Shown piece by piece: positions 1 through 22,575 of a stretch of 64,000 bases of DNA; position 1 is the stretch's first letter; each line of letters opens with the position of its first letter. The stretch comes from an uncultured Desulfobacter sp. (lineage in GTDB: Bacteria; Desulfobacterota; Desulfobacteria; Desulfobacterales; Desulfobacteraceae). Under the pieces are notes generated by a model. The model made no database searches. It was not told the origin of the DNA and saw nothing but the letters and a program-made list of their open reading frames with translations. Both the position numbers and the translations under genes were made by a program. The stretch is taken from NCBI GenBank assembly GCA_963665095.1, contig OY762069.1, positions 3,520,001 through 3,584,000 of the forward strand. The letters run 5' to 3'.

Positions 1-294
1 GCCACCAGAGGGCTTGCCACACGCTGCATCCCCGGCATCAAAGCCAACACGGTGCAATGCCTTTCCCATGTGATGCAGAGCACAGCCCTTGCAACGGTGC
101 TGGTGCCGGTGCTGGGTTATGACCGGGTGGAAGAGATTGTCCGGGCGGCAAAGGCATCTGGCCGCTCCATCCGGGAAGAGATTATCCATCAGGATATTGC
201 TTCCGAAGAGATTGTTGACACACTGCTGTCACCCAAACGGCTCTGCAAGTTAGGCTTTATTCCCGATGAGTTCGATGGGGTAAACAGAAAATGA
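1..294 (+). CDS. aspA: Aspartate ammonia-lyase (fumarase/aspartase superfamily), 3' fragment
   Basis: Frame open from base 1: ...RCIPGIKANTVQC...STALATVLVPVLGYDRVEEIVRAAKASGRSIRE...LLSP, a typical aspartase/FumC C-terminus; aspA is a known neighbour of hydEFG genes. Confidence 0.75.
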   Translation, partial: ATRGLATRCIPGIKANTVQCLSHVMQSTALATVLVPVLGYDRVEEIVRAAKASGRSIREEIIHQDIASEEIVDTLLSPKRLCKLGFIPDEFDGVNRK

Positions 295-341
295 AGTTCA
301 TGACAGGATTGAAAAAGGATTTCCCCTAAGGAGAATTGCTT

Positions 342-1547
342 ATGTCCAGTAAGGCCCCCCGCGGTGTTCGTCTCGTTATTGCGCTGGTTGGCAGGCGCAA
401 TGCGGGAAAATCGTCTCTTATCAATGCCATTTCCGGACAACAGATTGCCATTGTTTCCGACCACCCGGGTACCACCACGGACCCTGTGGCCAAGCAGTAC
501 GAGCTTCTGCCTCTGGGGCCGGTCACCTTTTATGATACAGCCGGGCTGGATGACGAGGGAGAACTTGGCGACCTGCGTGTCAAAGCCACCCGCAGGATTC
601 TGTGGCGGTCGGATGTGGCTGTGGTGGTGGTTTCAGAGCACGGCATCACCGATTATGAAAAAAAGATCATTGATGAAATCCGCGAACTGGAAATCCCCTT
701 TATCATGGTGTTCAACAAGAGTGATTTAAAAACACCTTCTGGCGAAGAGCTTGCCTTTTGCAAGGATAATTCACTGCCGTATATTGTCACTTCCGCCCTG
801 GACGGGGTGAATGTCACGGCGGTGAAAGAGGCGATCATCGACATTGCCCCGCCCGAAATCAAGCGTGAGCCGGTCCTGGCCGGCGATTTGATCAGTGAGG
901 GCGACTGGGTGGTCTGCGTGGTACCCATTGACCTGGCCGCCCCCAAGGGACGGCTGATCCTGCCCCAGGTCCAGGTGCTGCGTGAAATCCTGGACTGCGA
1001 TGCCCTGGGGATCATGGTTAAGGAGAGGGAGATTGACGAGGCCCTTTCGGGTCTGAGCCGGAAGCCCGCACTGGTGATCACCGATTCCCAGGTGGTGATG
1101 AGCGTGGCAGGAGACGTGCCTGAAGATATCCCGCTCACCACCTTTTCCATCCTGTTTGCCCGGTACAAGGGGGATATCGGCCAGCTCATCGCCGGGGCCG
1201 CCGCCATTGATGATCTTAAGGACGGGGACCGGGTCCTCATTGCCGAAGCCTGCTCCCACCATCCGGTGGCTGACGACATCGGCCGGGTTAAAATCCCGCG
1301 CTGGATCAACCAGTACACAGGCAAGGATTTGCATTTTGATGTCTATTCCGGCCACGATTTCCCCGACGACCTGGAGAGGTACAGGCTGGCGATCCATTGC
1401 GGGGGGTGTATGATCAACCGCGTGGAAATGCTGCGCCGGATCAAGGAGTGCCGCCGCCGGGGGGTGGCCATTACCAATTTCGGCCTGGCCATCTCCAAGG
1501 TCCAGGGGGTGTTTGACAGGGTGATAAAACCGTTTGGGAGGATGTGA
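342..1547 (+). CDS. hydF: [FeFe]-hydrogenase H-cluster maturation GTPase HydF
   Basis: GRRNAGKSS P-loop, PGTTTD, DTAG, NKSD, PKGRLILPQ, and Fe-S ligand motifs EACSHH and HCGGC; RBS AAGGAG 8 nt before ATG 342. Confidence 0.95.
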   Translation: MSSKAPRGVRLVIALVGRRNAGKSSLINAISGQQIAIVSDHPGTTTDPVAKQYELLPLGPVTFYDTAGLDDEGELGDLRVKATRRILWRSDVAVVVVSEHGITDYEKKIIDEIRELEIPFIMVFNKSDLKTPSGEELAFCKDNSLPYIVTSALDGVNVTAVKEAIIDIAPPEIKREPVLAGDLISEGDWVVCVVPIDLAAPKGRLILPQVQVLREILDCDALGIMVKEREIDEALSGLSRKPALVITDSQVVMSVAGDVPEDIPLTTFSILFARYKGDIGQLIAGAAAIDDLKDGDRVLIAEACSHHPVADDIGRVKIPRWINQYTGKDLHFDVYSGHDFPDDLERYRLAIHCGGCMINRVEMLRRIKECRRRGVAITNFGLAISKVQGVFDRVIKPFGRM

Positions 1548-3214
1548 TGCCTCCTGGAAAAAGCGGTACTGTTTTTGCCGGCAAGATTTTAGACCCGCCA
1601 CCTTCGGCCCGCCGAAAAATTTTCTGCCCGGGCAATACCCTGATTGTCTGCGCAAGACTGGCCTGCGGGCATGTGGAGGAGGCCTGGAGTTCCGGCCGGA
1701 TGATGCGCAACATGGATCTGCTGCTCCAGGGGGAGCTGGATGAACAGAGTCGTCCCTGTTTTGCCCTTCGGGCCAACGGTCTGTGCAATGCCGGGCATAA
1801 GCTGGCTGCAGTGCGGGCACTGGAAAACCTGGCCGGGATAACGCCGCCCAGAAATGCCTGTCTGGCCCGCAGCCTGGTCCAGGCCCTTCGATGTATTCAG
1901 GAGCATCTGCTCCATTTCTATCAGTTTCACCTCTCCAACTGGACCTGTCTGGCACCGGCCCTGCGGGCGGATCCCTGTAAAACAGCCCGGCTGGCCGAGA
2001 ATTCTGGCCGGGCAACCGGATATTTCAGGCAGTGCCAGCAGCGACTGCAGCCCCTGGTCCAAGGCAAAGGGATCAACGGGTTGGGTCTGCGGGATCATGA
2101 GGATTACTGCGGATCAAATGAGTTCCATCTTCTGGTCTTCAGCCACAGCCTGGAATCCCTCCAGACACAGGCGCTGCTCAACAGGGCGTTAGGGTTGATG
2201 GGCTATGAAAACGGGCGGTGTAAAGCCTATCATATGGGTGGCCTTCCGGAAGATCTGAACCTGGGCGGAAAGGTTCTGCAGCACCTGCGCGATCTTCTTT
2301 TGCAATGCCGGGATTTTGTCTGTTCCGTTTTCCTTAAAGACCTTGAACAGGTGGCCCGAACCTATGGCCATTGGAAAGATCTGGCCAAAGGAAATACCTT
2401 TCTGGCCCTGGGCGATTTTGGCCGCCCCCGTGACAGCGAAGGTCAGCTCTTTCCGGCCGGTATTATCTGTCTGGAAGGGGTGACCCCAAAAATTGATCCG
2501 GTGCAGACCGGCCGGATCCGGGAAGATAAGAACCCGCAATGGAACCGCCTGGACCAGGGACACTACCGTCTGGATTTTGGGGATCATGGCCCTGGATTTC
2601 ACTGGGGTAAAGGTGATTTTCACTGGCTTACAGCCCCCCGCCACGGCAGCCACCCTTGCGAGGCCGGGCCCCTGGCCCGGGTGGCCGGCGCCTTTGCCCA
2701 TGGCCAGAAGGCGGTACACCAGGCGGTCAATGACTCTCTTGCCGCCAGCGGGCTTGAACCCGAAGATCTGAACTCCGCTTTGGGCCGCCTGCTGGCCCGG
2801 GGCATTGAATCTTCGGTGCTGGCCCAGACCACCCTGGCATGGCTTGAGGAGTTGGAGACCTCTCTATCCCCGGGAGAGAGCAGGATGGGCGAAGAGGTCC
2901 GCCTGCCTGCCGCAGGTATTGGCATCGGTCATGTGGAGGTGCCAAGGGGGGCTCTGACCCACACCATCCAGGTGGAAAAAAACAGAATCATCCGCCATGA
3001 CTATCTTATTCCCTCGTTGTGGAATTTTTCCCCGCGGGATTCAAACCAGGTGCGCGGCCCTCTGGAACAGGCGCTTTTGGGAACGCCGGTGACTGATCCG
3101 GATCACCCCCTGGAAATTTTACGCATTGTACATGCATTTGATCCCTGCAACCCCTGTCATGTGGTGGTGGAGGACATGGATTCCGGGAAGACGACTGTGG
3201 TGGATGGGGAATAG
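1544..3214 (+). CDS. Divergent [NiFe]-hydrogenase large-subunit homolog (L1 motif RANGLC, L2 motif DPCNPCH)
   Basis: AWSSGRMMR, EHLLHFYQFH, APRH...EAGPLAR, EVPRGALTH, IPSLWNFSPRD...GPLEQAL, HAFDPCxxC align with group-1 large subunits; start overlaps the hydF stop (GTGA). Confidence 0.85.
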   Translation: MMPPGKSGTVFAGKILDPPPSARRKIFCPGNTLIVCARLACGHVEEAWSSGRMMRNMDLLLQGELDEQSRPCFALRANGLCNAGHKLAAVRALENLAGITPPRNACLARSLVQALRCIQEHLLHFYQFHLSNWTCLAPALRADPCKTARLAENSGRATGYFRQCQQRLQPLVQGKGINGLGLRDHEDYCGSNEFHLLVFSHSLESLQTQALLNRALGLMGYENGRCKAYHMGGLPEDLNLGGKVLQHLRDLLLQCRDFVCSVFLKDLEQVARTYGHWKDLAKGNTFLALGDFGRPRDSEGQLFPAGIICLEGVTPKIDPVQTGRIREDKNPQWNRLDQGHYRLDFGDHGPGFHWGKGDFHWLTAPRHGSHPCEAGPLARVAGAFAHGQKAVHQAVNDSLAASGLEPEDLNSALGRLLARGIESSVLAQTTLAWLEELETSLSPGESRMGEEVRLPAAGIGIGHVEVPRGALTHTIQVEKNRIIRHDYLIPSLWNFSPRDSNQVRGPLEQALLGTPVTDPDHPLEILRIVHAFDPCNPCHVVVEDMDSGKTTVVDGE

Positions 3215-3241: not shown

Positions 3242-4255
3242 ATGATGAAACGAAAAAACATATTAGACGCACTGAAAGATAAAGCCGGGCAGGAGGATCT
3301 CTTTGCAGCGGCAGACCAGGTGCGTAAAACCAACCTGGGCGACACAGCCCAGCTGCGCGGCGTGGTCCATTTTTCAAATTACTGCCGGTGCAACGACCTT
3401 TACTGTGGTCTGCTCAAGGATAATCCCGGGTGCAAACGGTTCCGCATGGGTGAAGATGACATTGTGGACACAGCCCTGGCCATTGCCGGCGCCGGCCTGA
3501 AAACCGTGGTCCTGCAGTCGGGTGAGGACCTTTATTACACAAGGGAAATGCTTTGTTCGGTTATTGAGCGGATACTTTCAAAGGCGGATGTGGCCATTAC
3601 CCTGAGTCTTGGGCAGCGGCCCAGAAAGGATTTTCAGGCGTTCCGGGCCGCCGGTGCCCAGCGCTATCTCATGAAGCATGAGACCATGAACCCGGACCTT
3701 TATTCAAGGATGCGTTCGGGCCTGACACTGTCTGACCGGCTGAAGACCATTGATGACCTGCGGGAACTTGGGTTCCAGGTGGGCGTGGGCAATATTGTGG
3801 GCCTGCCCGGCCAGACGATTGCGGACCTGTGCGAGGATATCCTGTTTTTCCAGGATTTCCAGCCGGATATGATCAATATCGGCCCTTTCATCCCCCATGC
3901 CCAGACCCCGCTCAAAGATGAACCGGCCGGGGATATAGAGCTGATGCTCCGGGTGTTTGCCCTGACACGAATTGTCACCGGCAACACCCACATGGCTGCG
4001 GCCAACACTGTGGCCACCCTGGACCCTGAACAGGGCCAGTACCGGGCACTGACCCAGGGCGGCGCCAATGTTATCATGCCCAACTGCAATCCGTTTCAAA
4101 AAAGTAAAACAGACAAAATAGAATATGAGTTTCAGATTACCACCCATAAACGGTATGTGTCCGTGGATGAGGCAAGAAATGTGCTTAAACGGGCAAAGCG
4201 AACTATAGACAAGGGGAAAGGACACTCCCTTAAAATAAAAGGAGACGCGTTTTGA
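3242..4255 (+). CDS. HydE-like radical SAM protein (BioB/HydE family) with atypical cluster motif
   Basis: LRGVVHFSNYCRCNDLYCGL, TVVLQSGED, LSLG, RYLMKHET, VGLPGQT, IGPFIPHAQTPL, GANVIMPN; C-terminus diverges from canonical HydE. Confidence 0.8.
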   Translation: MMKRKNILDALKDKAGQEDLFAAADQVRKTNLGDTAQLRGVVHFSNYCRCNDLYCGLLKDNPGCKRFRMGEDDIVDTALAIAGAGLKTVVLQSGEDLYYTREMLCSVIERILSKADVAITLSLGQRPRKDFQAFRAAGAQRYLMKHETMNPDLYSRMRSGLTLSDRLKTIDDLRELGFQVGVGNIVGLPGQTIADLCEDILFFQDFQPDMINIGPFIPHAQTPLKDEPAGDIELMLRVFALTRIVTGNTHMAAANTVATLDPEQGQYRALTQGGANVIMPNCNPFQKSKTDKIEYEFQITTHKRYVSVDEARNVLKRAKRTIDKGKGHSLKIKGDAF

Positions 4256-5007
4256 TTAAAGTCGCCATATACGGCAAGGGAGGCATTGGTAAATCCACAG
4301 TGACATCAAGCATTTCTGCTGCCTTAGGCGTTCAGGGATACAATGTCATGCAGATCGGCTGCGATCCCAAGACCGATTCCACCATCAATCTTCTGGGCGG
4401 TAAGGCCCTGACTCCCATCCTTCAGTATCTCCAGGAACAGGGACGTCCTGATACCCTGGACGATATTTCCAGGCGCGGGTTTGCCAATACTGTCTGCATG
4501 GAGGTGGGCGGTCCCACCCCGGGGGTGGGCTGCTTTGGCCGGGGCATGCTGACAGCCTTTGAACTCCTGGACGAGATGGGGGCCTATGATACCTGCCGGC
4601 CGGATGTTGTGTTTTACGATATCATGGCTGATGTGGTGTGTGGCGGCATTGCCGTGCCCATGCGCGAGGGGTTTGCCGACAAGGTCTGCATTGTCACTTC
4701 CGGCGAAAAGATGGCGCTTTTGGCAGCAAAAAACATTATAACGGCCCTGCGCAATTTTGCCGACCGCAACTACGCCGAACTTGGCGGGCTGATCCTCAAC
4801 TGCCGGGACATGCCTGACGAAGTGGCGCGGGTGGACGCCTTTGCAAAGGAGATGCAGACCGAAGTGATCGGGGTGATCCCCCGGGACAGGGCCATCCATG
4901 CGTTTGAGGAGGATGGCAAAACCATTGTGGAGGGGGATCAGACCCTGCCCACCTCGGTCTGTTTTTTTGATTTGGCTAAAACCATTATCGGGTTTAAAAG
5001 TGAATAA
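4252..5007 (+). CDS. Nitrogenase iron-protein-like ATPase (NifH/CfbC/BchL family)
   Basis: YGKGGIGKST, IGCDPKTDST, EVGGPTPGVGCFGRG, DVVCGG (both [4Fe-4S] Cys retained); TTG start overlaps the upstream stop. Confidence 0.9.
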   Translation: MIKVAIYGKGGIGKSTVTSSISAALGVQGYNVMQIGCDPKTDSTINLLGGKALTPILQYLQEQGRPDTLDDISRRGFANTVCMEVGGPTPGVGCFGRGMLTAFELLDEMGAYDTCRPDVVFYDIMADVVCGGIAVPMREGFADKVCIVTSGEKMALLAAKNIITALRNFADRNYAELGGLILNCRDMPDEVARVDAFAKEMQTEVIGVIPRDRAIHAFEEDGKTIVEGDQTLPTSVCFFDLAKTIIGFKSE

Positions 5008-5017
5008 GGATATTTGT

Positions 5018-6316
5018 ATGGATCTGGATCAAGCCCGCATCAGGGTTGAACATTTACGCAAGAAGCCGGATTTTCCCTTTGCGCCTCTGGAAGGGGTTGG
5101 CCCGAACCTGGCCGGCTGGGGGGTGATCGAGACCTCCCTGATTCTGCCCGAGTCTGTGGCAGTGATGGTGGGGCCCTCGGCCTGCCTGCGCCATTCAGCC
5201 TTTATGGCCCATGCCAGGGGTTTTACCGAACGCTTTTATATGCTGTGCGTGCCGGAACTGGACATGTCCATGGGTAATCATCTGTCCCGGGTGGAGGCCG
5301 CCATCAAGGATATTGCGGACCGGCGCAGTGAAAAGGTCCTTTTCCTGATTGTGGGGTGTCCGGACTATATCCTGGGCACGGATTTCACAGGCGTGATCAA
5401 ACGCCTGGAGGCATCCACGGGCAAAAAAATAATTCTGGGGGCCATGGCGCCCATTACCATCGGGATGAAAGAGTCACCCTTTACCTCGGCCTATACCTCG
5501 TTTTTTGAGTTTTTAAAGGATGAGCCCCGGGTGCCGGATGACGGGGTGGTCAACCTTTTAGGAACTTTTATGCCGCTGTCGGATGACGGGGAGTTTTATC
5601 AGGTGCTGTCGGCCGCCGGCATGGATACGGTGCTGCAGATTCCCTTGTGCCGGGATCTGAAGCAGTTTTCAGGCATGGCCCATGGCCGGGCCTCGGTGGT
5701 CCTGCACCCCCTGGCCAATGGCCTGAGCGGCAAAATGGAGAAGGAGATGGGCATTCCCGCCTGTTTTGCCCCCACCTCCTACGGGTTTTCCGTGATCCGG
5801 GACCTTTACGGAAAAATCAGCGAGGCTGTGGGAAAACCTTTGGATATTGAATCCCATGAACAGTCGGCACGCAAGGCGGCGGAACCGTTGCTTGAAAATT
5901 TACGCGGCAAATCTGCGGCCGTGGGCTGCAGCATTAACGGAAGCCCCTTTGAACTGGCCCTGTTCCTGGTTCAACATGGTGTGAATGTGGAGACCATTTT
6001 TGCCCGGGGCGCCATCAAACCTTACGAATGGGACCTCATCGAACAGTTGCGCGGGGCAAAACCGGATATCCAGGTATACAATGCCTCCCATCCGGCCTTG
6101 TGCGGGCAGACAACCCCTTTTAACCAGGTGGAGATCGCCTATGGCGTTGACGCGGGCATTTTCTGTGTCAATGCGGCCAATGTGCCGCTGTCACGCTACC
6201 AGGAGCAGAAATACGGGTTTGAAGCCACGGTCTGGATGCTGGAACATAGCTGCGAGGCCCTGGCCAATCCGGTGGACAACTATGACTGGATCTACCGGCA
6301 CAATTTTTTGATATAA
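5018..6316 (+). CDS. Nitrogenase component-1-like oxidoreductase subunit A (NifD/NifE/BchN fold)
   Basis: GPSACLRH, ELDMSMG, VGCPDYILGTD, VNLLG, PTSYG; RBS AAGGA before ATG 5018. Confidence 0.8.
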   Translation: MDLDQARIRVEHLRKKPDFPFAPLEGVGPNLAGWGVIETSLILPESVAVMVGPSACLRHSAFMAHARGFTERFYMLCVPELDMSMGNHLSRVEAAIKDIADRRSEKVLFLIVGCPDYILGTDFTGVIKRLEASTGKKIILGAMAPITIGMKESPFTSAYTSFFEFLKDEPRVPDDGVVNLLGTFMPLSDDGEFYQVLSAAGMDTVLQIPLCRDLKQFSGMAHGRASVVLHPLANGLSGKMEKEMGIPACFAPTSYGFSVIRDLYGKISEAVGKPLDIESHEQSARKAAEPLLENLRGKSAAVGCSINGSPFELALFLVQHGVNVETIFARGAIKPYEWDLIEQLRGAKPDIQVYNASHPALCGQTTPFNQVEIAYGVDAGIFCVNAANVPLSRYQEQKYGFEATVWMLEHSCEALANPVDNYDWIYRHNFLI

Positions 6317-6325
6317 GGATCATTT

Positions 6326-7543
6326 ATGAAAGAATATCATCATCTCCTCCCCCTGGCCACGGGCTATTTCGGGGTCAGTTCGGCGCTCTATGATTTCGGT
6401 GGGTTAGTGGTCATCTACGGGCCTGCGGGCGGTGCATGGCATATCAATATCGAGGATGAACCGCGCTGGTACCGGGGGCCTGCCACGGTTGTCGGGGCAG
6501 GGCTTCTGGAAATGGATGTCATCCTGGGCAATGACGACAAATTCATCAACAATATCGTGAAGACCGCCAAAGGGTTGAACAGCCCGTTTGTGGCCCTGTC
6601 AGGCACCCCGATCTCGGAAATTATCGGGACAGACCTTAAAGGGTTTGCCCGGACCGTGGCAGCCCGGACCGATATCCCGGTGTTCATGGTGCCCACGGCC
6701 GGCTCCGAACCCTATCCCGAGGGCGCATCCAAAGCGCTTCTGGCCCTGGCAGACACCTTTATGGACCCGGATGCCCCTAAACGCCCCAAAGGGGTCAATG
6801 TGCTTGGGGCCATTCATCTTTCCACGGGCAAGGAAGGCCATCTTGATCCTCTGTTCAAAGCGGTTCAGGATGACGGGTTTGAACTGGTAAGTGTCCTTTC
6901 AGCCCCGGTTTCCGGACAGGAAGATCCCCTGGAGGGCGTGCGCATGGCACCGGGAGCCCGGATCAATGCCGTGGTCTCCACCAGCGGGATCGCCCTAGCT
7001 GAAAAAATGTTTGCAGAATATAAAATCCCCTTTGTGGCGGGCATGCCTGTGGGGCTGTCCGGCCGTGACGCCTTTCTGGCCATGCTGCACAGGGAAAGCC
7101 CTGATTTTCAGGTACCAAAGAAAGAAAAAACACCCTATAAACACGCCCTGATCATTGGCGAGCCGGTTCTTGGATATGGGATCCGGCATTGTCTGCGCTA
7201 CGACTTTGGCATCCCAAAGGGGGACGTGGTCTCAGTGACTCCCAGCGATCCACTTTTCAAGGCGTCCCAGGGCCGGGCAGGCCTTTTGGCCGAACGTGGA
7301 CCGGCTGACCTGGACACAGATGACGAACAAGCGATAGCCCAACTCATGAACAACCGGGAAGTGGACCTGGTGGTGGCAGACCCCTGTTACCAGCCCCTGC
7401 TCAAGAATAAGGCCGCTTTCATCCCTGTACCCCATGTGGCCATGAGCGCCCGCATCCATTGGGACATGGACTACGAATACGTTATGGACAACGGTTACGC
7501 CTATCTGGCGTCCTATTTGTCAGGCAATGGCCCCTGTTTATAA
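6326..7543 (+). CDS. Nitrogenase component-1-like oxidoreductase subunit B (NifK/NifN/BchB fold)
   Basis: GVSSALYDFGGLVVI, EDEPRWY, LLEMDVILGNDDK, GTPISEIIGTD, VNVLG, ADP motif; typical partner of the preceding gene in nitrogenase-like clusters. Confidence 0.8.
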   Translation: MKEYHHLLPLATGYFGVSSALYDFGGLVVIYGPAGGAWHINIEDEPRWYRGPATVVGAGLLEMDVILGNDDKFINNIVKTAKGLNSPFVALSGTPISEIIGTDLKGFARTVAARTDIPVFMVPTAGSEPYPEGASKALLALADTFMDPDAPKRPKGVNVLGAIHLSTGKEGHLDPLFKAVQDDGFELVSVLSAPVSGQEDPLEGVRMAPGARINAVVSTSGIALAEKMFAEYKIPFVAGMPVGLSGRDAFLAMLHRESPDFQVPKKEKTPYKHALIIGEPVLGYGIRHCLRYDFGIPKGDVVSVTPSDPLFKASQGRAGLLAERGPADLDTDDEQAIAQLMNNREVDLVVADPCYQPLLKNKAAFIPVPHVAMSARIHWDMDYEYVMDNGYAYLASYLSGNGPCL

Positions 7544-7645: not shown

Positions 7646-9508
7646 TCAACTGCGGCAGACTTTCGGCAAAGGAACGGCCAGGCTTAAATATTTGCCGTTT
7701 TCCTCAAACATCAATTTTTTATCTGTCATCATTTTCAAAAAAGGTGTTACTTTTTCCCGGGTCAATTCCTGAAAATGAAGAAGAATTTTTTCCAGTGACC
7801 GGTGCTGGCCGCAATAGAGATAGACTTCCCTGGAAAGCCCTTCCAGGCGGTGAGTTAAGGGCTCTTTTAAGAGCCGCTTCTGGCGGATAATCATAAACTC
7901 TTTTCCATCCCGATAACTTAGAATCGGCGTATCACCACCGGTTTGATGAATCCGGGTATATGTTTTTTCCCAGTCATGAACTTTTTGTCTCACCGGCCGC
8001 CACAGTTTTTTCTGGTATCCCATGTCACCGCGGTACCTCTGGATCAGAAAGGTCATGCTGCGGTGAATATGTTCCGGAAAAATTTTTGCATAATTGGGAT
8101 GGTTAAAAAGGGCCTTGACCCCAAAGTGCTCTGGATCATTGTATACACAGCTTCCATGGCCCATCCAGAAATGCACCAGTTTGGGAGGACGGAAAACCGC
8201 TGCAAACTCAATGTTTCGGAGGGTTTCATTCATGTCTTCAATATCACTGCCGGGAAAATGAAGTATCAGGTTGGCATTATTGGCAATACCTAAGCCTTCA
8301 CAGTGCTTCATGATTTCCAGATTCTGAATGGCGGTGGTTCCCTTGTTTAATTTTTTCAACAGACGGGAGCTTAAGGATTCGATACCGATCTGTACTTCGC
8401 TGACGCCGGCACAGCTCATTTTTTCCAGTACCCGTTTTGGGGTGGTGGCCCTGAGTTCACAGAAAAGTTTGAGGTCTTTTTTTAATCCGGACAGTTGATC
8501 AAACATCTCCAATGCGGTTTTTACCGGTATGAGGTTGTCCATGAACGTCACGGAAAGTGTGCGATATTTTGAAGTCAGATAATCTATTTCTCTGCTTACC
8601 TGTTCCGGGCCTTTGCACCGGTATCCCTGCCAGTTACGGTTAAGATTGCAAAAAGCACAACCTGAATGTCCTGAGTTGGAAGCCTGCCACCGGCATCCCC
8701 GGGAGGCCTCGGCCGGGAGCGCAGGGAAAAAACTTTTATCCGGCGCTCCTGTTTTCAGTAAATAAAAATAGTCGTCATAATCGGGAGCAGGCAGATTTTT
8801 GAGGTCTGGCATCTGGCCAAAGGTTACCGGGGCTTTACTTCTGCAGGAATGACGCGTAACAAGGCCGGGAATGCGGGAGATAGTATCAGTGTCAGCTGAA
8901 TTGCCAAGATGATGCACAAGGCTGCACAGGGGTCGTTCTCCTTCACCGTTAATGACAAAATCAATTTCCGGGAAAGCCTCAAAAAGGCCCTTAATGGTAT
9001 CTCCGGCAAACATGGAGCCGCCAATGACAATGGGGAGGGTTGGAAAGTTCTTTTTTATGGAACGGATAAAGTACAAAGAGGAGCAGAGCTGGCAAAAGCA
9101 GATTGAAAAGCCTGCCAGGCCCCAGCGATCCCAGTTGATACTGCGGATAAAGTCATCCGCAGTCTCTGCTGCCTGATGTGTGAGGACGTTGAAGTCGGCC
9201 CTGGATGACAGGGGCAGGCCCCTTGCTTCCTTGTGGAACAGCGCCTGGATGCGGTGGAATCGTTCCGGATATAAGAGCGCCGCATAAACGGATTCTGCCA
9301 GCCAGTTTTTTTTAGAAATTTCACGATAAAGGGGATAGCCGATGGCTGTTGCTAATTTCAAATAGAAATGGTGAGCCGCCACCTCAAGATCGGGAATCTC
9401 CCGGTTCAGGTATGCTTTCAGCGCACCAAGCTGAATGGATGGCCGGCTGAAAAGCGGCCAGGGGGCGGATATAAGCGCAATACGTGCTATTTGATTTTTA
9501 GAAATCAT
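7646..9508 (-). CDS. B12-binding radical SAM protein, RiPP-maturation C-methyltransferase type (TIGR03975-like)
   Basis: PWPLFSRPSIQLGALKAYL, GFS...Q, IVIGG, GEGE, PDYDDYF, EASRGC-x11-CAFC, QIGIESLS, KGTTAIQN. Confidence 0.8.
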   Translation of the reverse strand: MISKNQIARIALISAPWPLFSRPSIQLGALKAYLNREIPDLEVAAHHFYLKLATAIGYPLYREISKKNWLAESVYAALLYPERFHRIQALFHKEARGLPLSSRADFNVLTHQAAETADDFIRSINWDRWGLAGFSICFCQLCSSLYFIRSIKKNFPTLPIVIGGSMFAGDTIKGLFEAFPEIDFVINGEGERPLCSLVHHLGNSADTDTISRIPGLVTRHSCRSKAPVTFGQMPDLKNLPAPDYDDYFYLLKTGAPDKSFFPALPAEASRGCRWQASNSGHSGCAFCNLNRNWQGYRCKGPEQVSREIDYLTSKYRTLSVTFMDNLIPVKTALEMFDQLSGLKKDLKLFCELRATTPKRVLEKMSCAGVSEVQIGIESLSSRLLKKLNKGTTAIQNLEIMKHCEGLGIANNANLILHFPGSDIEDMNETLRNIEFAAVFRPPKLVHFWMGHGSCVYNDPEHFGVKALFNHPNYAKIFPEHIHRSMTFLIQRYRGDMGYQKKLWRPVRQKVHDWEKTYTRIHQTGGDTPILSYRDGKEFMIIRQKRLLKEPLTHRLEGLSREVYLYCGQHRSLEKILLHFQELTREKVTPFLKMMTDKKLMFEENGKYLSLAVPLPKVCRS

Positions 9509-16010: not shown

Positions 16011-16335
16011 GATACTTCCTCCCAAATTTATAGTTAGGTGAGATGATCAGGGGTGATAGGGACGGATAAGATAATAGAAAAACGCTTTTTCAAAAATGGT
16101 GTGACAGGATAGGTGGCAGATTCGCGAATCCGTTGTCTACCTTCTTTGATCTAAATAACCAGACTAAAGGCAAGCTCACCCCCTTTCCAACGTCCATTGC
16201 CTTATGCCCGGTTACGCGTTATGAAAACCGGTAAGAAAAATGTTGGCACAAACCCCTTGAATAATCAAGAGAAAATGTTTTCCAAACAATCTTTAATTGA
16301 GATCCGTGATCCGTTCTGGTATAGGAAGTTTCATC

Positions 16336-17634
16336 ATGGCATATATTAATAAACAGATGCTCACGGCTGTGGTGGCGGATGAGGACGGAAATATCTTTGA
16401 GCTGGACGGGTATGCGGCAGCCGGCATGTCCGGGGACGATTTATACATTCTGACCAGATCCGGCACCTGCCCCATGCCCCACGGCAGCGAGCTGATGATG
16501 CTGCCCCACCGTACCCCTGTTGTATTCAACCTGATCACCGATAAATTTGAATCCATTGCAACCAACCCGTATCAGCCGGGCCAGCGCATTTTACCGGTGG
16601 GCGTGTTCAACTCCCCGGGGTATGTGAACCAGCACTTCTGCGCTTATGATGATGATGGCATTCATACACCCTTGCCGCTTTTTTCATACGGGGCAGTGGG
16701 GTTCGGAAAAAATGACTTCAGGTCAGCCGCGTTGCAGGTGGATGATGAACCCCGCCAGGATCTGCGGCTGATGCCTATCGCCGGGGTTCAGAAAGGGGTG
16801 GATAAGTTCAGGAAAAAATATCCGGATAACCGTCTCATGCGCCACCTTGAGACCTGCGCCCTGGTATATGGGTGTCCGGCCGGAAAAAATTTTTTCCTGG
16901 GCCGGTTTGAAGCCCCGCTTCCCACCTCTGTGGTGTGCAATGCCCGTTGTCTTGGGTGCATCTCCCTGCAGACAGACAACAATCTTTGTGCCTGCCAGGA
17001 CCGGATCAGTTTCATCCCCTCACCTGAAGAAATTGCAGGCGTTGCTCTGGAACACATTCTAAAAGTAGACAAGGCTGTGGTCAGCTTTGGCCAGGGATGT
17101 GAAGGCGAGCCCTTAACCTCGGGACAGGCCCTTGAGCAGGCCATTATTCTAATCAGGAAAAAAACGGATCAGGGCACCATCAATCTCAACTCCAACGCCA
17201 GCCTGCCGGATTGGGTGGAGCGGCTGTGCAGGGCAGGCCTTGACAGTATGCGGGTCAGCATGAACTCTGTGCGGAAAACCTGTTACACTGCCTATTTCAG
17301 ACCCAAATCCTATAAATTTGAAGATGTGGTGGAAAGCATCAGACGGGCCAAAGACCATGGCCGGTTTGTGGCCGTCAACTACCTGAACTGCCCGGGATTT
17401 ACCGACTCAGTCAGAGAAAAAGAGGCCCTGTTTGAGTTTATCCGGAAAACCGGCACGAACATGATCCAGTGGCGCAACCTCAACTTTGACCCCCGAAGCT
17501 ATTGCCGGATCATGGAAGATGCGGAACCAGGGGGTGGCCCAACAGGCATGGCGACCCTGATTCAGGACCTGAGCAAAGAATTTCCCCGCCTCATCCACGG
17601 CTACTTTAACCCACCCAAAAAAAACCATAAATAA
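16336..17634 (+). CDS. Radical SAM protein of unknown function
   Basis: CNARCLGC (CxxxCxxC), SFGQGCEGEP, MRVSMNS, MIQWRNLNFDP, GYFNP. Confidence 0.85.
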   Translation: MAYINKQMLTAVVADEDGNIFELDGYAAAGMSGDDLYILTRSGTCPMPHGSELMMLPHRTPVVFNLITDKFESIATNPYQPGQRILPVGVFNSPGYVNQHFCAYDDDGIHTPLPLFSYGAVGFGKNDFRSAALQVDDEPRQDLRLMPIAGVQKGVDKFRKKYPDNRLMRHLETCALVYGCPAGKNFFLGRFEAPLPTSVVCNARCLGCISLQTDNNLCACQDRISFIPSPEEIAGVALEHILKVDKAVVSFGQGCEGEPLTSGQALEQAIILIRKKTDQGTINLNSNASLPDWVERLCRAGLDSMRVSMNSVRKTCYTAYFRPKSYKFEDVVESIRRAKDHGRFVAVNYLNCPGFTDSVREKEALFEFIRKTGTNMIQWRNLNFDPRSYCRIMEDAEPGGGPTGMATLIQDLSKEFPRLIHGYFNPPKKNHK

Positions 17635-21265: not shown

Positions 21266-22575
21266 CAGTAGTGTCCGGTTAGGTTTTTGCTTGCTCAGTA
21301 ATTTTTTGATCTTTGACAATATTGTCTCTGTTTGAACCGTGAAAAGCATCATTGTTGCTCTCAATCAGATCATTCAAGATGGCTGTTCGTAACTGCCGAA
21401 CCCTTTTAATAGTAACCTTTTCATTAAACTCGTTTCGACAGTAGATTGCAAGCAACAGATACGTGATGAGGCCGCTAAGGATTTGCACCATAAGGCCATA
21501 TTCGCTGCGGGCAATGAGGTGGTAAACTTTCAGGTGTCCTTTCCACCATTTGAAAAAATCTTCAATGGTCCACCGGAGCTTATATATGGTTGCTATTTGC
21601 TCTGCCGTTAAATCATGCCTGTCAGTTGCTACATAGTATTTCACGCCGGCAATTTTATAGCCAACAACCCGGACGGGAGTTTTTGTCTGGTTCAGGTTCG
21701 GAGTGCCAAGGAAGACCAGAGCATCATAGAAAATGTAGCTGCCATAGTTGACCTCGTGAGTCTCAATTACCGTTCTGGTTGTTTTGGCTTTTATACGGCA
21801 AACAAAATGCTTGCCTTGTGCCTGTAGCAAGTCAAAATCGTGATGTGATTGATAGCCACGGTCCATAACACCTGTTTGCCCCTCGGTAAGTATCTTTGGG
21901 ACAAAAGGGCGCTCCCCGCCGTTGCCTTCTGTCAGGAATATTTTGTTTGGAATGCCGTGATTTATGTCAAATCCGCAATGCGCTTTGGCTTTTTTACTTC
22001 CTTTCCTGTAGTTTGCCCAATGCATTGAAAGGACGGCATTTATAAGGCTGCCGTCAATGGAAACCAGATCGCCCAACTCGGCATGCTCCTTTGGCAGGCA
22101 CCCAACAGCCTGTTTATAAAGATCTTCGAAGACAAATTGCAGTTGTTCAAGCCCTCGGTGGTTGACTGCTTCACAAAAGCTGCTGCGGCTGATACCGCCT
22201 TCCGGAGCAATATGTTCTTTGGCAAAAATATTTTCCTTGAGATCTTGGACTAAATGCCGGGCTGATTTGTGTTCCTGCAGATGAAAATAAATCAGGGCAT
22301 TTATCTGGTCTTCGAATGTCATTTTTAAAGGTCGGTCTCCTCGAGATTGCAATTCTGGTGCTTGTGGAAGCGACCTTATCAGAGGGTTACGGAACTTGTC
22401 AAAATTCAGGGACGATATTATGGCTTTGGTAATTGAAATGCGCGTCATTTGGGCTCCTTGATAAAATTTTTCAAGGCGCGCAAAAATTTTTACGCACATT
22501 TGTCAACATAAAAATGACGTTTTTTGAATAATTTTAGATATTTTTTATATGCAACAACCTAACCGGACACTACTG
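21266..22575 (-). mobile_element. IS4-family insertion sequence, 1310 bp, apparently intact
   Basis: Terminal inverted repeats CAGTAGTGTCCGGTTAGGTT(T/G)TTGC (24/25 match); 9-bp direct target duplication AAAAATAAT at 21257-21265 and 22576-22584. Confidence 0.95.
21279..22448 (-). CDS. IS4-family DDE transposase
   Basis: SIDGS, MDRGY, YKLRWTIEDFFK (YREK motif); RBS AAGGAG before ATG 22448; stop lies inside the terminal repeat. Confidence 0.93.
   Translation of the reverse strand: MTRISITKAIISSLNFDKFRNPLIRSLPQAPELQSRGDRPLKMTFEDQINALIYFHLQEHKSARHLVQDLKENIFAKEHIAPEGGISRSSFCEAVNHRGLEQLQFVFEDLYKQAVGCLPKEHAELGDLVSIDGSLINAVLSMHWANYRKGSKKAKAHCGFDINHGIPNKIFLTEGNGGERPFVPKILTEGQTGVMDRGYQSHHDFDLLQAQGKHFVCRIKAKTTRTVIETHEVNYGSYIFYDALVFLGTPNLNQTKTPVRVVGYKIAGVKYYVATDRHDLTAEQIATIYKLRWTIEDFFKWWKGHLKVYHLIARSEYGLMVQILSGLITYLLLAIYCRNEFNEKVTIKRVRQLRTAILNDLIESNNDAFHGSNRDNIVKDQKITEQAKT

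Follow-up and report, generated by a model that had tools for sequence, protein, structure and literature searches.

The window analysed here, a 64,000-nucleotide stretch from an uncultured Desulfobacter sp., opens with seven genes on one strand, in the order aspA, hydF, a large-subunit homolog, a hydE-like gene, nifH-like, nifD-like and nifK-like, with overlapping or short junctions throughout. The first (1..294, + strand) is the 3' end of a gene for an AspA-like aspartate ammonia-lyase of 478 residues that starts upstream of the window, relatives with 50% identity to which pass the NF008909 model. The second (336..1547, +) is hydF, the only copy in the genome, the product of which scores 556.7 bits with TIGR03918 (cut-off 325.55) and has an intact P-loop, the GTPase motifs and the CxH...CxxC motif of HydF. 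This is followed by a homolog of the [NiFe]-hydrogenase large subunit that lacks the Ni site (1544..3214, +; PF00374), and then by a gene for a 337-residue radical SAM protein of the HydE clade (3242..4255, +), referred to here as variant hydE, which passes the TIGR03956 cut-off of 254.6 bits narrowly, with 261.7 (relatives reach 294). Its stop codon is overlapped by the start of a gene for a NifH-like ATP-dependent reductase (4252..5007, +; PF00142) in which both cluster Cys motifs are intact, and genes for NifD-like (5018..6316, +) and NifK-like (6326..7543, +) subunits, both PF00148, complete the run. A promoter scan and an Rfam search gave no useful result. Convergent with the operon is a gene (7646-9508, -) for a B12-binding radical SAM protein that scores above the TIGR03975 cut-off for RiPP C-methyltransferases, and a 445-residue radical SAM protein that passes no NCBIfam family cut-off is encoded at 16297-17634 (+).

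The cluster motif of variant HydE, C48-x3-D52-x2-C55, occupies positions 3383..3406, where TGC CGG TGC AAC GAC CTT TAC TGT encodes C48-R-C50-N-D52-L-Y-C55; D52 (codon 3395-3397) aligns with Cys67 of Thermotoga maritima HydE (TmHydE). The best 120 of 3558 homologs comprise 84 members of the variant clade and 36 canonical neighbours. Asp is present at this site in 80 of the 81 variant members that cover it, giving CxxxDxxC in place of the CxxxCxxC motif of HydE, whereas all 36 canonical neighbours have Cys; over 30 loci the Asp codon is GAC in 20 and GAT in 10. Contigs from four sequencing runs in four studies, one run possibly being the source of the window, span the gene with six differences, none of them in the D52 codon. 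These contigs and the clade-wide Asp rule out a read error or a strain-specific lesion; the original prediction had considered a single read error unlikely. It had also described the motif as CxCxDxxC with a possibly re-spaced cluster. The Asp of that description is conserved, but the extra Cys at +2 is found in only 55 of 81 members and in seven there is none at +1 or +2, while an extra Cys at +1 occurs in 25 of 36 canonical HydE proteins too. Since the +2 Cys is variable, the conserved motif is CxxxDxxC, and a re-spaced CxC ligand set was rejected as a feature of the family. One clade member, P0082, has Cys at position 52 together with the remaining clade signatures. When 1.84 billion representatives were searched with a profile, Asp at this site was confined, among the best 150, to the single cluster of variant HydE, the other 149 having Cys (146) or lacking the region (3). 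Asp-ligated [4Fe-4S] clusters are known from a ferredoxin and from DPOR, and by its position D52 is a plausible cluster ligand; searches of the open-access PMC and bioRxiv literature turned up no Asp-ligated radical SAM enzyme.

Identities are 59-100% for members of the variant clade and 45-51% for the canonical neighbours, and a quick tree separates the two groups with SH-aLRT support of 100, in keeping with the distinct HydE paralog that had been proposed. Scores for other families fall well below their cut-offs (PylB 119 against 348, BioB 78.5 against 225, HmdB 59 against 321), and the 17 NCBIfam matches include no NifB family, so that in this respect the protein is unlike a NifB- or MarB-type maturase. 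The predicted model (pLDDT 92.3) has the full TIM-barrel fold and superimposes on TmHydE (PDB 3ciw/7o1o) with a TM score of 0.92 and an rmsd of about 2 Å at 38% identity. The equivalents of Y69, Q107, E161 and R180, which we take to be the SAM-binding residues of TmHydE, are invariant, and R54, T134, R155, V105, L157, M224, M291 and probably K309 are retained as well (TmHydE numbering, from alignment). Met224 and Met291 are the residues assigned to Fe(I) binding and dimerisation, and R54, T134, R155 and T269 those that contact CN, in PMC11826987 and PMC10114646. The former two correspond to Met210 (3869..3871; invariant in 84/84) and Met279 (4076..4078; 83/83), and of the six residues only T269 has changed, being Asn in 83/83. 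Conversely, about 30 invariant changes specific to the clade concentrate in the pocket, where E58H, G226N, T269N and W294C are seen, and in the lid. The lid loop (residues 288-305; 4103..4156) carries a six-residue insertion, after which a Tyr invariant in 36/36 canonical neighbours has become Phe in 84/84 variant members; Lys303 within the loop is kept and is probably the equivalent of Lys309. The altered substrate pocket and the C-terminal lid change that had been anticipated are thus borne out, the former as predicted from residue replacements.

The large-subunit homolog and the NifH/D/K-like proteins each depart from the enzymes they resemble. In 30 members of the large-subunit family, the catalytic Glu persists in 3, the first Ni Cys (Cys1) in 1 and the C-terminal His in 1, so that the two CxxC motifs, Glu and His of a [NiFe] large subunit are not jointly present. 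Cys2 (30/30), the bridging Cys4 (28/30) and the Arg, Leu, Pro and Ser/Thr positions (30/30 each) are kept; we take Cys2 and Cys4 to be the bridging, Fe-side ligands and the other four to line the Fe(CN)2(CO) site. On this basis, the protein is predicted to be a carrier of Fe(CN)2(CO). The NifH-like protein scores under the nifH and CfbC cut-offs. The NifD-like protein is one of about 82 in a closed family that spans the taxa of variant HydE plus Lebetimonas, and its nearest solved relative by sequence is MarD of methylthio-alkane reductase (E 3e-18, at most 18% identity), which is also the top match among the structures listed (TM 0.73). MarHDK (PDB 9fmg, 9d9u), NifEN, DPOR and CfbCD share with the operon the combination of a NifH-like ATPase and a D/K-like pair. 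However, the D subunit here has two interface-type Cys, along with other invariant Cys and His residues, and the K subunit has no invariant Cys, against the six P-cluster Cys of Mar (PMC13753814) and Mo-nitrogenase, and the operon contains neither marB nor nifB.

The genome is 97.4% complete in one contig and encodes two HydA proteins with intact H-cluster motifs, far from the operon, one variant hydE and one hydF. Neither hydG nor the second canonical hydE that the original prediction had proposed looking for was found in it: the next matches share 28% and 21-24% identity and score well under the cut-offs, which excludes a hidden copy of either and leaves variant hydE as the sole hydE. The 28% match (G000:C1:899350-900225, -), the only other HydE-like one, has a normal three-Cys motif and is, we assume, probably PylB. 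A hypF-C-D-E block located about 10-15 kb upstream of the operon, near a NiFeSe hydrogenase, holds the only hypD of the genome.

Across 41 host genomes, many of them draft MAGs, variant hydE co-occurs with hydA in 39 and with hydF in 38, as is characteristic of HydE, and with a full hydG, the remaining partner of HydE, in only 7, all of which also carry canonical hydE. The same holds in a 31-genome subset, where hydA is present in 29 and hydG above cut-off in three, again with canonical hydE. Variant HydE likely resembles HydE in action but fails, to judge from the sequences, two of its defining features, namely the three-Cys motif and the partnership with HydG, the supplier of its substrate. 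A second hypD is present in 21/41 hosts and in 0/34 hydEG controls, the controls being hand-picked and mostly closed genomes. The remaining 20 hosts, including the present genome, have a single hypD and also have [NiFe]-hydrogenases that need HypD. Two hosts carry a second, more distant hydF-like gene (G148:C1:2335459-2336610 and G168:C3:3350-4504).

An order-wide sample of 251 Desulfovibrionales genomes (the order of host G011) contains variant hydE in 13. Among these genomes, hydG was found in none of the eight with variant hydE as the only match, in four of the five with both types and in 93 of the 98 with canonical hydE alone; at the search threshold G011 falls in the first of these groups, despite a decayed canonical copy. 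The hydG count excludes seven weak matches to TIGR03955 (best E above 1e-100), none of which is in a variant hydE host. Within the 151 genomes that lack hydG, hydA is present in 9/9 variant hydE hosts versus 18/142 others. Fisher tests of these distributions gave p values of 1e-7 to 1e-9, which are overstated because related genomes are not independent. Additionally, 14 of the 123 genomes with hydA have no hydE or hydG match, and 12 of these also lack hydF by the queries used (G047, G099, G108, G118, G123, G155, G156, G161, G184, G209, G211 and G269); since such orphan-hydA genomes exist, hydA alone is no proof of maturation.

The neighbourhood survey covered 32 loci in 31 genomes, many of the loci ending early. 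A nifH-like and a D-like gene lie 3' of variant hydE in 30 loci and a K-like gene in 27, and the nifH-like gene is the next gene in 30 of the 31 genomes, upholding the proposed tie to nitrogenase-like genes. The large-subunit homolog is directly upstream in 24/32 loci, while hydF occurs nearby in 15 loci, as do hypD and hypE in 14 apiece and hydA in six. In three thermophiles (L027, L029 and L031; genomes 99-100% complete, without hydG), hydA-hydB-TM1266-hypE-hypC-aspA-hydF-hydE-H-D-K-hypF-hypD, with hydE of the variant type, lie on one strand. Nearly all scanned genes of this operon pass NCBIfam cut-offs, hydB having no model of its own and hydA of L029 falling just under, and the large-subunit homolog is absent from all three loci. 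HypC, HypD, HypE and HypF of the operon resemble those of [NiFe]-hydrogenase maturation in passing their cut-offs and in the intact motifs of HypD, but here they are extra copies in an [FeFe] operon, with hypB located away from the operon in 5/5 hosts searched, and the large subunit adjacent to variant hydE elsewhere lacks its Ni site. On the tree, the operon copies of HypD call for three or more changes, indicating recruitment on at least three occasions, and a single ancient paralog dedicated to the operon is not supported. The thermophile operon HypD proteins (L027 13974-15059, L029 16543-17622, L031 16505-17575) form a long branch with residues changed after the CGxH motif. A spirochaete variant hydE (L014 3098-4108) has no adjacent H-D-K genes, and its genome carries canonical hydE and hydG.

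Comparison of the loci with the canonical hyd operon, in which hydA, hydB, (TM1266), hydG, aspA, hydE and hydF form one block (PMC4794192), reveals the same hydA/B, TM1266, aspA and hydF genes in the same block, but with hydG truncated or absent, its place being taken by hyp genes, nifH/D/K-like genes and the large subunit that lacks its Ni site. Between TM1266 and aspA/hydE, where hydG belongs, hosts L075 and L076 have an intact gene, L035 and L036 one with an internal deletion, leaving in-frame remnants of 153 and 143 residues, and L012, L037, L039, L042, L045, L078, L079 and L080 none. Canonical hydE remains without hydG in L037, L045 and L080, having decayed in L045, where R54, R155, M224 and T269 are lost; both genes are gone from L012, L039, L042, L078 and L079, and in the first three of these the block adjoins the variant hydE module. 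This series, read from gene content, is the pattern expected of one system replacing another. In the two remnants (L035 2697-3155, L036 4835-5263), the deletions have almost identical end points, fusing hydG residue about 128 to residue about 447, which may reflect an old common deletion, a retained mini-protein or an assembly collapse.

From the motif, clade, operon and co-occurrence pattern, all of which are observed, we infer the chemistry set out below, in which variant HydE probably carries out HydE's part in a route to the H-cluster that does without HydG and is fed by Hyp-made Fe(CN)2(CO). The canonical substrate of HydE is complex B, Fe(II)(Cys)(CO)2(CN), which is made by HydG (PMC10114646), whereas HypCDEF makes Fe(CN)2(CO) (PMC9431212); the Hyp machinery is proposed as the feed because, without HydG, it is the only source of CO/CN-bearing iron in the module. 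First, HypF, HypE, HypC and HypD would make Fe(II)(CN)2(CO), as is their established job. The large-subunit homolog would then receive and carry this unit, with the strongly diverged operon HypD perhaps taking its place in the thermophiles that lack the homolog. Next, the ATP-driven NifH/D/K-like reductase would turn the unit with two CN and one CO into a thiolate complex with one CN and two CO that replaces complex B. Of all the steps this one is the weakest and is doubtful, and no precedent for such chemistry was found in open-access PMC or bioRxiv literature. Variant HydE, with a [4Fe-4S]-SAM cluster held by Cys, Asp and Cys, would use radical chemistry to remove the carbon of the thiolate, keep Fe(I)S(CO)2(CN) on Met210 and Met279 and then dimerise it. 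Finally, HydF would add the bridge with AspA-derived ammonia and load HydA; AspA-like enzyme is likely the ammonia source for the azadithiolate bridge, a link between aspA and hydF being made in PMC11736057. Several findings count against this pathway, namely the hosts with a single hypD, the existence of orphan-hydA genomes, the siting of the hyp genes of the present genome beside a NiFeSe hydrogenase with hydA far off, the thermophile loci without the homolog, the lone spirochaete gene in a genome with hydEG, the Cys of P0082 and the draft state of many host genomes. Taken as a whole, a second H-cluster pathway of sulfate reducers, with a Hyp feed, a nickel-less carrier, nitrogenase-like ligand rewriting and an Asp-ligated radical SAM enzyme fusing two irons, has prospects that fall a little short of even.

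The alternative that survives best retains the same pathway and differs in the fourth step alone, so that it shares part of the probability of the favoured HydG-independent route. Here, the Asp would mark the loss of radical chemistry, and variant HydE would be a SAM-binding scaffold on which Fe(I) units reduced by the ATPase dimerise. It is an unlikely reading, to which the Cys found, among the best 150, in each of the 146 other HydE-like representatives that have the motif region, the replacement of pocket residues E58, G226, T269 and W294 while M224 and M291 stay, and the low-potential reductase encoded next door lend some weight. Yet the invariant SAM-site residues are as expected for SAM bound at a cluster, Asp and no other residue has been held through both of its codons, and P0082 has Cys. 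Variant HydE probably still cleaves SAM.

A different order of events, in which variant HydE serves the nitrogenase-like enzyme rather than being a true HydE, was part of the original prediction. It would have variant HydE, with HydF and the Hyp proteins, build an Fe/CO/CN cofactor for the D/K pair, as NifB and MarB do for theirs, HydA being an orphan or otherwise matured. The near-invariant order of variant hydE-H-D-K, with overlapping start and stop, is like that of marBHDK (PMC13753814), the D subunit keeps invariant Cys and His beyond the interface pair, and orphan-hydA genomes do exist. This reading is nonetheless improbable, leaving unexplained the presence of hydA in nearly all hosts, the way in which hydG and canonical hydE disappear from the hyd operon step by step and the insertion of the module inside hydA operons. 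Variant HydE, moreover, does not resemble NifB and has the Met residues for Fe(I) dimerisation. It is more likely that the nitrogenase-like enzyme feeds variant HydE in hydrogenase maturation than vice versa, because this is the sole hydE beside hydF, aspA and two HydA without hydG, passes the HydE cut-off and retains Met224 and Met291, and because hydA is present in almost all of its hosts, which tend to lose hydG.

Somewhat less credible again is a reading in which the protein is a regular HydE that tolerates the ligand swap and resides on a mobile hydrogenase island, with the hyp genes serving [NiFe] enzymes and CO and CN coming from an unrecognised HydG substitute or as free ligands. The HydE cut-off is passed, [NiFe]-type large subunits were found in 5/5 thermophile hosts tested and hypB in all five searched, the range is patchy (3/121 in the family, 6/401 in the phylum), and HydE with HydF alone gave about 1% activation in vitro (cited in PMC9431212). 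Set against these are the roughly 30 clade-specific invariant changes, an H-D-K family of the same range, extra hypD copies in hosts only and a large-subunit homolog without a Ni site. Finally, it is very improbable that the module matures a new metalloenzyme based on the altered large subunit, such as one with Fe only or a [NiFe]-like one with other ligands: the gene is directly upstream in most loci and has new conserved Cys (N-terminal in 28/30, a CxC in 26/30), but it is missing from the thermophile operons, was seen in the window with no small-subunit gene alongside, is 35-64% identical across loci where variant HydE is 70-84%, and lacks the CxC Cys in the window copy.

Precedent for the HydG-independent route that we favour is sparse. 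A single sentence in PMC3464626 places NifHEN-like genes of some Firmicutes next to genes for hydrogenase maturation and suggests that they may help cluster assembly, and PMC9431212 describes acetogens with hypCDEF and no clear hydG, in which the hydE and hydF locus tags are not adjacent to hyp. Both resemble the present case, in nitrogenase-like proteins as possible helpers and in the missing hydG, but concern another phylum, and their available text describes no Asp-HydE, mechanism or test; none of these Firmicutes NifHEN-like proteins is present by name in the D-like family. Searches of open-access PMC and bioRxiv main texts found no description of the variant hydE operon or of a radical SAM enzyme with the Asp motif; such loci may be listed in the supplements of PMC3464626, PMC11736057 or PMC13753814. 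The module of variant hydE, nitrogenase-like and Hyp genes likely forms a second, hitherto undescribed route to an iron-only active site. If correct, a HydG-free route would overturn the view of HydG as the source of all H-cluster CO and CN ligands (PMC3105041), bring the cofactor assembly systems of [FeFe] and [NiFe] enzymes and a member of the nitrogenase family together in a single pathway, and provide a function for an uncharacterised nitrogenase-like family. It would also offer a test case for the unexplained absence of hydG from some acetogens (PMC9431212). A natural Asp-substituted radical SAM motif under purifying selection is in itself a direct tool for examining the effect of ligand identity on SAM cleavage, and the clade is present in named cultured species (Pseudodesulfovibrio senegalensis, Desulfolutivibrio sulfoxidireducens, Maridesulfovibrio bastinii and Thermodesulfobium narugense) and is therefore testable now.

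Two further features of the genome were noted. A 406-residue ORF in the window (21279-22499, +) encodes what we take to be an IS4-type transposase. Outside the window, three more H-D-K sets of the nitrogenase-like kind, next to transporter-like genes, and an apparent true nif cluster, labels that come from reading the translations, are located at about 203.5-212 kb, 254-258 kb, 6139-6143 kb and 4845-4853 kb of the contig (G000:C1).
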